Source: Candidatus Acetothermia bacterium (GTDB lineage Bacteria; Bipolaricaulota; Bipolaricaulia; M55B111). Taken from it: a DNA stretch of 23,784 nt. Position numbers and translations under genes: made by a program. The notes below the pieces were generated by a model. That model was given only the letters and a program-made list of their open reading frames with translations, was not told where the DNA came from and ran no database searches. Every line of letters starts with the position of its first letter. Position 1 is the first letter of the stretch. The DNA is taken from assembly GCA_046543235.1 (NCBI GenBank), contig JBKGZT010000017.1:1-23784 (forward strand), read 5' to 3'. Shown here in pieces: positions 489 to 662 of this stretch.

Positions 489-662
489 ACAAGAAGCATT
501 TACTAAAGGCCAACCCTCCGAAAGGAGGGGGCGCAAAGTTACGGCCTTCGGGAAACGCTAAACGCAAACCTACCGCAAGGTAGGGACGCAAAACCACGGA
601 CCCTTCGGGGTAGCCTGGTTACCGTAACTCCCGATGGTGGGCGGACTACTAGATGCCCTTGT
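489..662 (+). promoter_or_regulatory. c-di-GMP-I (GEMM-I) riboswitch aptamer, outer copy
   Basis: AAAGGCCAACCCTCC-GAAA-GGAGGGGGCGCAAAG matches the GEMM-I P2/GNRA/CGCAAAG consensus. P1: GCATTTA 496-502 pairs with TAGATGC 650-656, extended by ACAAG 489-493 with CTTGT 658-662. P3: 537-546 pairs with 636-647. Ligand nucleotides G20=508, A47=535, C92=649 (Vc2 numbering). Confidence 0.8.
548..634 (+). promoter_or_regulatory. c-di-GMP-I (GEMM-I) riboswitch aptamer, inner copy (C20 variant)
   Basis: GCAAACCTACC-GCAA-GGTAGGGACGCAAAACCACGGACCC-TTCG-GGGTAGCCTGGTTACCG is a near-textbook GEMM-I. P3 has the AG bulge (612-613) and a UUCG loop. P1: TCGGGA/TCCCGA (548-553/629-634) and ACG/CGT (555-557/623-625). 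A47=590, C92=622, position 20 = C563. Confidence 0.9.

Follow-up and report, generated by a model that had tools for sequence, protein, structure and literature searches.

The leader at nucleotides 489-662 of a Candidatus Acetothermia bacterium contig carries the signatures of two c-di-GMP-I (GEMM-I) aptamers, and raises the question of whether these are arranged one after the other or one inside the other, and of what the arrangement would mean for expression of the downstream gene. All coordinates are those of the window, i.e. the complete 23,784-nt stretch that was analysed (contig JBKGZT010000017.1, assembly GCA_046543235.1, forward strand). The sequence supports the second arrangement, in which an inner aptamer would be nested in the P3 of an outer aptamer (Table 1). 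Taken as a whole, the locus is quite probably best explained by nested aptamers with a single platform built by the outer one, acting as a predicted c-di-GMP-dependent translational ON switch with a two-ligand response.

Organization of the leader in the window

Every base pair listed in a previous, sequence-only reading of the leader was located in the sequence at the corresponding positions. P1, a P2 capped by GAAA, the pocket formed by the equivalents of G20, A47 and C92, and the basal portion of P3 would all belong to the outer aptamer. The short apical P3 hairpin typical of the single aptamers of this phylum would be replaced by a closing stem (UCGGGA, 548-553, with UCCCGA, 629-634) followed by the complete second aptamer (553-626). 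Outer P1 consists of seven pairs (G496-C656, C497-G655, A498-U654, U499-A653, the wobble U500-G652, U501-A651 and A502-U650), and is extended by pairing of ACAAG (489-493) with CUUGU (658-662). The outer ligand-site equivalents G508 (G20), A535 (A47) and C649 (C92) were found in the correct register; G20 directly contacts one of the ligand guanines, and the role of C92 is likewise described, in passages of PMC6140456. Outer P2 is closed by G509-C534 and C510-G533, and continues as a stem (514-519/524-529) with a GAAA loop (520-523).

Outer P3 begins with A537-U647, G538-C646, U539-A645, U540-G644 (wobble), C542-G643 and G543-C642, with A541 bulged, and continues with G544-U638, C545-G637 and C546-G636, G639-G641 being unpaired. 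This helix is irregular in the window and contains, according to the register chosen, either a 3-nt bulge or a G544/G641 mismatch; it reads AGUU-A-CG..GCC / GGU-GGG-CG-GACU, with the receptor-like internal loop reduced to U547/U635. The majority of homologs fit the consensus (AGCU-A-CGG-ACC / GGU-GG-CCG-AGCU) plus a receptor-like loop. The inner aptamer, which exhibits the consensus structure with P1 at 555-557/623-625, scored 60.7 bits against an RF01051 gathering threshold of 35. Two of its ligand-site positions are canonical (A590 for A47 and C622 for C92), and the G20 position is occupied by C563, which is neither G nor the A of the cGAMP variant.

Table 1. Coordinates of the leader, its predicted platform and the regulated gene in the window
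Feature	Position	Strand	Details or evidence
Promoter-like site TTGATA-17-TATAAT	365..393	+	11/12 consensus matches, consensus match only
Anti-SD2 and anti-start segment (predicted)	487..501	+	Window MFE, duplex search, covariation in 54 homologs
Outer P1 5' strand and extension	496-502 and 489-493	+	Sequence, covariation, R1 alignment
Outer binding-site 5' elements	508..535	+	Sequence, 3'-truncated Rfam alignment; P2 covaries
Outer P3 5' strand, including insert-closing 548-553	537..553	+	Sequence, MFE, covariation, R1
Inner c-di-GMP-I aptamer	553..626	+	RF01051 60.7 bits, E 7.9e-10, model positions 1-87; covariation
Outer P3 3' strand, containing anti-SD1 (631-638, CCGAUGGU, complementary to 663-670)	629..647	+	
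A648, C649 (outer C92 equivalent), outer P1 3' strand (650-656) and extension (658-662)	648..662	+	Covariation, R1
Platform target (predicted)	663..684	+	ACCAUCGG 663-670, Shine-Dalgarno GGAGG 669-673, spacer GUGCUU, start codon GUG 682-684
Regulated gene, 186-aa protein	682..1242	+	Signal-peptide-like N-terminal segment
Terminator-like hairpin and T run, 3' of the gene	1269..1298	+	

The outer aptamer was not reported by Rfam in the window (cmscan, and E-value mode on 440-720); Infernal discards matches that overlap a better one, and an outer match would contain the inner aptamer. When 499-552 was searched alone, a 3'-truncated clan match was obtained (RF03167 positions 1-53, 35.2 bits, E 1.7e-7), and the outer 3' piece (628-668) alone matched no Rfam model, even at an E-value cutoff of 10. 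Among 20 loci scanned, eight were nested, and in four of these the outer 5' half appeared as a weak RF01051 match (35.8-41.8 bits). The anticipated blindness of a covariance search, which was to see the inner copy only or a weak second match, was thus borne out. In the one weak match whose alignment was inspected (locus L038), the C92 position was deleted and no P1 3' strand was aligned.

An ordinary series tandem was also considered, in which a compact first aptamer would carry a P3 hairpin CC-UUCG-GG (545-552) and a P1 (496-502/559-565) overlapping the second aptamer. GCAUUUA (496-502) and UAAACGC (559-565) pair at six of seven positions, with C558 preceding, and the weak full-model matches at the four other loci also speak for such an aptamer. 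The long-range outer pairs by themselves, however, were calculated at -36.7 kcal/mol and the compact structure at -14.9, and the inspected weak alignment lacks the C92 position and the P1 3' strand. The P1 partner of the compact structure is, as judged by eye, not conserved in homologs, whereas the long-range pairing 496-502/650-656, whose conservation had been predicted, was paired in 99.4% of cells (n=54), 16 of the sequences showing U-A replaced by C-G. In addition, the single aptamers of the phylum have their short hairpin at the exact position taken by the second aptamer in nested elements. A contiguous, head-to-tail tandem does not fit the sequence, as the outer 3' half (636-656) comes after the complete inner aptamer, and the compact reading as a whole is barely credible.

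The nested fold was also recovered by a covariance model, R1, which was built from an alignment (A3) of 13 nested elements of other families, the genus of the window being excluded. The R1 match takes in 496-656 over the full length of the model and forms outer P1 and P3 around the inner aptamer (111.9 bits, E 2.2e-29); the sub-ranges 548-634 and 499-634 scored 47.9 and 92.2 bits, respectively, although such truncated-mode scores are not strictly additive. A sequence-only HMM of 25 single aptamers from the phylum was run on outer aptamers spliced in silico, which gave a median of 48.0 bits (n=55) for alignments spanning about positions 7-85 of the 91 in the HMM, compared with 35.4 for the 5' half alone, 36.7 for a shuffled 3' part and 39.5 for a downstream control. 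In the window, the gain from the true 3' part was small (37.0 bits for the spliced outer aptamer vs 34.7 for the downstream control), and the inner aptamer scored 34.3 bits on the same HMM.

Conservation, covariation and the two ligand pockets

To place the element in its phylum, a pattern of two adjacent 5' halves was searched, which was found at 70 places in 52 of 184 genomes, with no hits for the reversed-pattern control. R1 returned 60 matches of 87.3-187.1 bits in 44 of 151 phylum genomes; below this range, scores fall to at most 79.7 bits, and many of these matches cover inner-aptamer positions only. The insert, which lies distal to the receptor region, spans 63-220 nt between anchors. 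A stricter form of the pattern, which demands exact consensus motifs, was found in none of 401 Clostridia genomes sampled. A wider contig scan with the general two-5'-halves pattern matched at least 120 stretches, and the 80 loci listed comprised two nested elements, one simple repeat and otherwise chance matches; on this basis, the scan carries little information on other phyla. Series tandem c-di-GMP-I riboswitches are also present in the phylum, as adjacent matches.

Covariation was examined in 54 aligned elements for the outer helices and in 21 sequences for the whole nested structure. In the outer helices, 95.1% of cells are paired, and nine of 25 pairs (74 cells) have double-sided changes; these values were reached by 0-1 of 500 shuffles, and controls with slid strands paired in 30-38% of cells. 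Four of the six P2 stem pairs covary. As the sequence of outer P1 and P3 is highly conserved, many pairs vary on one side only or never. Across the whole nested structure, 91.8% of cells pair, with double changes at 26 pairs. The earlier proposal that a complete GEMM-I aptamer lies within the distal P3 of a second one, whose 3' half follows, is accordingly upheld by homologs, covariation and an independent covariance model.

The helices of the alternative OFF state, which sequester the Shine-Dalgarno (SD) region, were shown to covary as well. Among the anti-SD helices, 92.4% of cells are paired and eight pairs (36 cells) have double changes; the observed values were equalled by 0-4 of 500 shuffles. 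For both anti-SD helices, the median length of the longest duplex was 9 bp (55 elements), and compensated variants were observed as CCUAAUGGU/ACCAUUAGG, GCCUAUUGGU/ACCAAUAGGC and UUAUAUGGU/ACCAUGUGG. The nested architecture, its conservation and the covariation of both ON and OFF helices are shown by these data. Two further helices were predicted. One is a local hairpin (UGGUGGC/GCUGCUA, RNAalifold) within the outer 3' half, which is pairable in 96.8% of cells; its covariation is no better than that of shuffles, and it was rejected as a core element, being retained solely as a possible OFF-state element. A helix between the outer P3 5' strand and the inner 3' tail (537-544/622-629), predicted by both RNAalifold and MFE, is considered lineage-specific and outside the core mechanism, as a duplex of at least 7 bp is present in only 14 of 55 elements.

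Position 20 of the outer aptamer is G in 47 of the 54 parsed elements and A in the other seven; none of the 54 lacks A47 or C92. The seven elements with outer A20, the cGAMP-type signature, have an inner G20; conversely, inner position 20 is C in eight elements, including that of the window, each with an outer G20. Both aptamers carry the canonical G/A/C in 32 of 54 elements, the inner C92 base calls of this parse being rough, since they were made by regular expression. In all nested loci scanned, the inner aptamer lies above the RF01051 gathering score; where RF03167 was the best model of its clan, inner scores were 66.2-78.4 bits (threshold 59), and in two loci the inner aptamer was reported under RF01051 (L067, 59.5 bits; L029, 58.5 bits).

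These pockets bear on whether both sensors work. Because of C563, the inner aptamer of the window may bind weakly or bind something else, and passages of PMC6140456 make no mention of a C20 or U20 variant. It is conceivable that each element contains one working sensor, either because the outer aptamer is a ligand-blind scaffold for the inner one or because, in the window, the C20-bearing inner aptamer is a non-binding insert in a single outer riboswitch. The substitution of a ligand-contacting G20, the irregular outer P3 of the window and the wide range of insert lengths, as expected of a tolerated insertion site, are consistent with this reading. We nevertheless consider it unlikely, given that both folds retain the family consensus and covary, that the outer pocket is either canonical or of the known A20 type throughout, that the inner aptamer passes the family threshold wherever it was scanned, and that more than half of the parsed elements are canonical in both pockets. 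Moreover, by analogy with the protonated A20 described in PMC6140456, a protonated C could read the Hoogsteen edge of guanine.

Predicted expression platform and regulated gene

A single SD-sequestering platform was identified, located downstream of, and common to, both same-class aptamers. In the OFF pairing, 494-501 pairs with 671-678 and 487-492 with 680-685, these bases being the ones that make up outer P1 and its extension when the switch is ON; the longest anti-SD2 duplex of the window is AAGCAUUU/AGGUGCUU. The OFF and ON folds are mutually exclusive, with the outer P3 3' strand and the P1 5' strand each taking one half of the SD region. In the absence of ligand, anti-SD1 (631-638) would pair with 663-670, and 487-501 (P1 5' strand and flank) would pair with 671-685, so that both the SD and the GUG start codon would be buried. 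Formation of the outer aptamer would lock both strands in P1 and P3 and release the ribosome-binding site. A small secreted protein would therefore be predicted to be translated in cells when c-di-GMP is high. The leader is thus probably a translational ON switch, as judged from these structure models, with the outer aptamer's own helices as its platform.

Folding calculations are consistent with this switch. In the free ensemble of the window, the unpaired probability was at most 0.25 for the SD and 0.0 for the start codon. At least four of five SD nucleotides were paired in the free MFE structures of 45 of 54 elements, compared with 13 of 54 when the outer pairs were enforced, and the median SD unpaired probability rose from 0.03 to 0.51 upon enforcement of the outer fold. 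For the window, the MFE was -90.3 kcal/mol, compared with -67.0 for the best nested structure; in a nearest-neighbour model that leaves out tertiary contacts, this OFF-ON gap of 23 kcal/mol would be large even for two tightly bound ligands.

A nested fold acting through transcription, or in the opposite direction as an OFF switch, was considered alongside the translational ON switch. A weak terminator-like site (661-676) is followed by UUGUUGUG, and the ON direction is proposed from secondary-structure logic only. That site, however, has only five pairs and includes the SD itself, and a terminator scan revealed no strong intrinsic terminator between or after the aptamers before the start codon. 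Furthermore, the SD-pairing strands are those used by outer P1 and P3, both alternatives covary and most elements have a more accessible SD when the outer fold is enforced. Transcriptional or OFF control is consequently regarded as highly improbable.

For the translational ON switch, a role of the inner aptamer can be proposed from the topology. Once folded with ligand bound, the inner aptamer closes off the long outer P3 loop and should, for this reason, favour folding of the outer aptamer. If each site binds as predicted, two ligands would be required, and the response would be steeper than that of a single aptamer; the coupling of the sites, and thus the two-ligand cooperativity, is a prediction from this topology. 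Given that the inner and outer pockets have varied independently of each other, nested two-input gates that read different cyclic dinucleotides could exist among the members. We tentatively extend this to a natural aptamer-within-aptamer class, in which both sites bind, stacking of helices couples them and the outcome is a digital, two-ligand translational ON response, with some members possibly acting as gates for two cyclic dinucleotides; this broader proposal falls somewhat short of an even chance.

The transcript would start near position 400, as deduced from the promoter-like site upstream of the leader, and the terminator-like hairpin after the gene suggests a monocistronic unit. No Pfam family was found for the regulated protein. 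Every nested element with a readable downstream ORF precedes a similar small, signal-peptide-like protein, and these small secreted proteins constitute a phylum-wide family, often with several copies per genome. As a lead only, an atlas comparison relates the protein to WxL-like surface proteins. Together, the elements and their secreted proteins suggest that this poorly known, uncultured lineage has a surface trait under c-di-GMP control.

Comparison with known multi-aptamer systems

No description of an aptamer nested within another aptamer was found in the literature searched, including passages of surveys of tandem riboswitches. Such a survey describes 347 doublets and 12 triplets of c-di-GMP-I riboswitches in series (PMC9481103, passages), a further example being the Bc3-5 triple tandem of Bacillus thuringiensis (cf. 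PMC4759541, in part). The series tandems resemble the nested element in having two same-class aptamers per 5' UTR, in preceding surface- or adhesion-type genes and in an expected sharper response; their aptamers are, however, contiguous and head-to-tail, and are filed under multiple expression platforms in the passages concerned (PMC9481103). In the nested element, by contrast, one aptamer interrupts the other and a single platform is formed from outer P1 and P3 strands. As covariance annotation displays the inner aptamer only, or mistakes the outer 5' half for a weak second match, surveys relying on it would overlook such elements or take them for ordinary tandems.

The tandem glycine riboswitch, assigned to the dual-aptamer, single-platform class in passages of PMC9481103, is similar in that two like aptamers share one platform and fold in a coupled manner. 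Glycine aptamers, however, lie side by side and are linked by tertiary contacts, whereas coupling in the nested element would use helix continuity, with inner P1 on outer P3. The HMP-PP riboswitch also places one RNA element inside another, as its aptamer is embedded in a terminator (PMC6478431), although the host is an expression-platform hairpin and not another aptamer. In Clostridioides difficile, a c-di-GMP-II aptamer is integrated with the ligand-dependent fold of a group I ribozyme as a two-input system (PMC9481103, passages). This system differs in aptamer class and in its ribozyme partner, and its elements are adjacent rather than nested.

The coupling principle proposed here is the same as that of engineered sensors with GEMM-I built into a Spinach aptamer stem, where folding of the insert closes a stem needed by the host. 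Those sensors are synthetic, with a dye-binding host and without a natural expression platform. Since each pocket varies independently of the other, the nested elements may provide natural material for two-input cyclic-dinucleotide logic, and nesting would, if the proposed coupling is true, represent a simple physical and directly testable route to cooperativity. Compared with the known multi-aptamer riboswitches, in which sensors lie side by side, a conserved natural arrangement with one sensor inserted in a helix of the other, and with the expression platform formed by helices of the outer one, would be a new architecture in the catalogue.

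Nested arrangement of two c-di-GMP-I aptamers

Inspection of the window showed that every base of the nested layout proposed for positions 489-662 by the sequence-only reading is as described. At gathering thresholds, an Rfam search of the whole 23.8-kb window reported a single element, a c-di-GMP-I aptamer at 553-626 (60.7 bits, E=7.9e-10), as had been forecast in the expectation that a covariance search would return the inner copy alone or a truncated second match; a permissive search of 440-720 yielded only noise beyond this aptamer. A second family 5' half, comprising the outer ligand-site residues and a GAAA-capped P2 stem (see the table), is located upstream of the match, and when region 485-552 was searched alone, the family's clan was matched at 35.2 bits (E=1.7e-7), the match being truncated at its 3' end and spanning model positions 1-53. 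The outer 3' half was found only after the complete inner aptamer, where GGU-GGG-CG-GACU is followed by A648, C649 and UAGAUGC, the last of which pairs with GCAUUUA to form outer P1; this short piece, searched alone against Rfam, was undetectable.

Features of the nested riboswitch locus and its surroundings (window positions)
Feature	Position	Strand	Basis or content
Promoter-like site	365-393	+	consensus match
Outer P1	496-502/650-656	+	sequence; alignment to covariance model R1
Outer ligand-site and P2 elements	G508, G509-C534, C510-G533, A535, GAAA cap	+	sequence and clan match
Inner aptamer	553-626	+	RF01051, 60.7 bits
Inner P1	555-557/623-625	+	adjoins closing stem 548-553/629-634
Terminator-like hairpin after the gene	1269-1291, T run to ~1298	+	hairpin and T run
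Signalling cluster downstream of ORF 682-1242	2803-12485		CheB-CheR-PAS fusion, PAS-HD-GYP-type phosphodiesterase, KaiC-like ATPase, two GGDEF proteins

Conservation and distribution within the phylum

The nested architecture is real and conserved, and is not an artefact. Across an alignment of 21 nested elements, the whole nested structure was paired in 91.8% of cells, with two-sided changes in 26 of 55 pairs, while none of 500 shuffles equalled the observed values and slid controls were paired in 33-44% of cells. For the outer helices alone, an alignment of 54 elements was paired in 95.1% of cells and exhibited two-sided changes in 9 of 25 pairs (74 cells). The 496-502/650-656 pairing, expected to be retained in homologues, was indeed kept, outer P1 being paired in 99.4% of cells over the 54 sequences, 16 of which have C-G in place of U-A; in outer P3, C-G was replaced by U-A in five sequences (including the window) and U-A by C-G in three. 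Many outer pairs are invariant or changed on one side only, so that the covariation signal, although real, comes from a minority of positions.

Covariance model R1, for which 13 elements from other families served as input and the window's genus was excluded, matched 496-656 over all 166 model positions (111.9 bits, E=2.2e-29), with outer P1 and P3 aligned as paired. With R1, region 548-634 scored 47.9 bits and region 499-634 scored 92.2 bits, which indicates that much of the total comes from the outer halves, with the caveat that scores obtained in truncated mode do not add up strictly. Across 151 genomes, R1 produced 60 matches in 44 genomes (87.3-187.1 bits), below which matches scored at most 79.7 bits and were in many cases restricted to the inner-aptamer part of the model. 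As a sequence-only stand-in for a covariance search, spliced outer aptamers were scored with an HMM derived from 25 single aptamers, giving a median of 48.0 bits over nearly the full HMM length, compared with 35.4 bits for the 5' half alone and 36.7 and 39.5 bits for two controls. The margin was small for the spliced outer aptamer of the window (37.0 bits versus 34.7 for the downstream control).

Two family 5' halves, spaced too closely to hold a complete aptamer between them, were detected at 70 places in 52 of 184 phylum genomes, and the reversed-pattern control returned none; the class and phylum samples each comprised 184 genomes, so that the phylum sample apparently consists of this one class. 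At least seven families of the phylum contain nested elements, often two to three per genome and ~1 kb apart. Comparison with single aptamers of the same phylum, in which CCUAC/CCUAA is followed by a short hairpin and then UAUGG-type receptor strands, makes the place of insertion visible: nested elements retain the receptor strands, and in place of the short hairpin of P3 they carry a stem and an entire second aptamer, in some cases with an additional hairpin as well.

On five contigs (G161:C1, G162:C39, G163:C54, G165:C8 and G039:C15), two to three paralogous genes for small secreted proteins each have a nested riboswitch of their own and lie ~1 kb apart, with a third copy up to ~7 kb away; one copy per array is of a shorter subtype without the extra hairpin. 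Insertions of 60-150 nt at the inner P3 apex were observed at six loci (L059, L089, L095, L228, L235 and L237), containing many short repeated GGGTT/AACCC-like words and resembling long imperfect hairpins. Furthermore, two outer P3 subtypes were distinguished, the first with 5' CGGACC and 3' GGU-GG-CCG, and the second, to which the window belongs, with CGGCC (without the A), a 3' triplet CAG, ACG, GCG or CUG, and a purine-purine mismatch or larger bulge.

Predicted translational control, ligand pockets and downstream genes

The MFE fold of 485-690 differs from the nested fold, pairing 487-501 with 671-685 and 631-638 with 663-670 and thereby covering the Shine-Dalgarno (SD) sequence GGAGG (669-673) and the GUG start codon (682-684). 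In the free ensemble of this region, unpaired probabilities were at most 0.25 for SD bases and 0.0 for the start codon. Because the anti-SD strands are the outer P1 5' strand and the outer P3 3' strand, formation of the aptamer excludes the SD-sequestering structure and vice versa. In each of the sequestering helices the longest duplex has a median length of 9 bp (n=55 elements), with compensated variants present, and these helices were paired in 92.4% of cells of the 54-element alignment (two-sided changes in eight pairs), an underestimate owing to the misalignment of one family there. At least four of five SD bases were paired in the free MFE of 45/54 elements and in 13/54 with the outer pairs enforced, the median SD unpaired probability rising from 0.03 to 0.51. 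No convincing terminator was found between the aptamer and the gene in the window. The most likely mechanism would be a translational ON switch driven by outer-aptamer folding, and such control via the outer aptamer's helices is well supported by structural logic and covariation.

The inner aptamer is placed between the two outer P3 strands, and its P1 adjoins the closing stem. Inner folding and predicted ligand binding would shorten the effective loop of outer P3, which would in turn favour the outer fold; judging from this topology, the inner aptamer should promote outer folding. In the unliganded MFE of the window, 537-544 (outer P3 5' strand) pairs with its perfect 8-bp complement 622-629 (inner 3' tail), disrupting inner P1, and such a duplex of at least 7 bp is present in only 14/55 elements. 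With the inner aptamer enforced in the window, the energy penalty is 5.2 kcal/mol and the nested state lies 18.1 rather than 23.3 kcal/mol away; since neither tertiary contacts nor the ligand enter into nearest-neighbour energies, these values indicate the direction of the effect only.

Ligand-site positions G20, A47 and C92 were parsed in 54 of 55 elements. Outer/inner triplets were G-A-C/G-A-C in 32/54, G-A-C/C-A-C in 8/54 (including the window) and A-A-C/G-A-C in 6/54; in the remainder, the inner C92 was called by regular expression and is uncertain. In GEMM-I aptamers, G20 contacts one guanine at its Hoogsteen edge and C92 pairs with the other, whereas A at position 20 marks cGAMP-sensing relatives (PMC6140456). 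A search of passages in that article gave no C20 or U20, so that the inner pocket of the window, with C563 at the G20 position, represents a variant without a description found there. An inner C at this position (8/54 parsed elements) is also present in loci L068-L074 of genera g13 and g22. Outer A with inner G at position 20 was observed in 7/54 parsed elements, and outer A20, the cGAMP-sensing GEMM-Ib signature, is carried by loci L233, L235, L236, L237, L076 and L063 (genus g17 and relatives); on pocket sequence, such elements could be heterotypic two-input devices.

The 186-residue product of ORF 682-1242 begins with a signal-peptide-like segment and was assigned to no family in a Pfam search. 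Wherever the ORF downstream of a nested element was readable, it encodes a small secreted protein of similar kind that terminates in a PG-Y-A-V-YTV-like motif. A protein atlas pointed to unnamed clusters and, more weakly, to WxL-domain surface proteins, a possible relation regarded as a lead and not a finding. Of the downstream GGDEF proteins, one has the architecture MASE3-PAS-GAF-GGDEF, and the signalling genes are consistent with c-di-GMP signalling. For ORF 2155-2700 (181 aa), Pfam returned nothing even with the E-value cut-off relaxed to 10.

Comparison with known tandem riboswitches

The c-di-GMP-I aptamers are a well-known class, in which tandems arranged in series are common. A 2022 survey of tandem architectures reported 347 doublets and 12 triplets, and the passages searched in it describe no nested case (PMC9481103); likewise, a text search of a 2025 survey of contiguous riboswitches gave no wording on embedded, interleaved or overlapping arrangements (PMC12452182). 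Full-text searches in the main text of openly accessible articles, covering nested, tandem and c-di-GMP riboswitches as well as Bipolaricaulota and Acetothermia, gave no description of a nested aptamer or riboswitch. When 20 loci were scanned with Rfam, the inner aptamer was reported in the eight nested ones, and in four of these (L038, L029, L053 and L030) the outer 5' half was also reported, as a weak full-model RF01051 match (35.8-41.8 bits) whose C92 positions were deleted in the one alignment inspected. Since the outer 5' half is called just above threshold, automated surveys would count these four loci as series doublets, and the nested architecture would escape Rfam-based pipelines.
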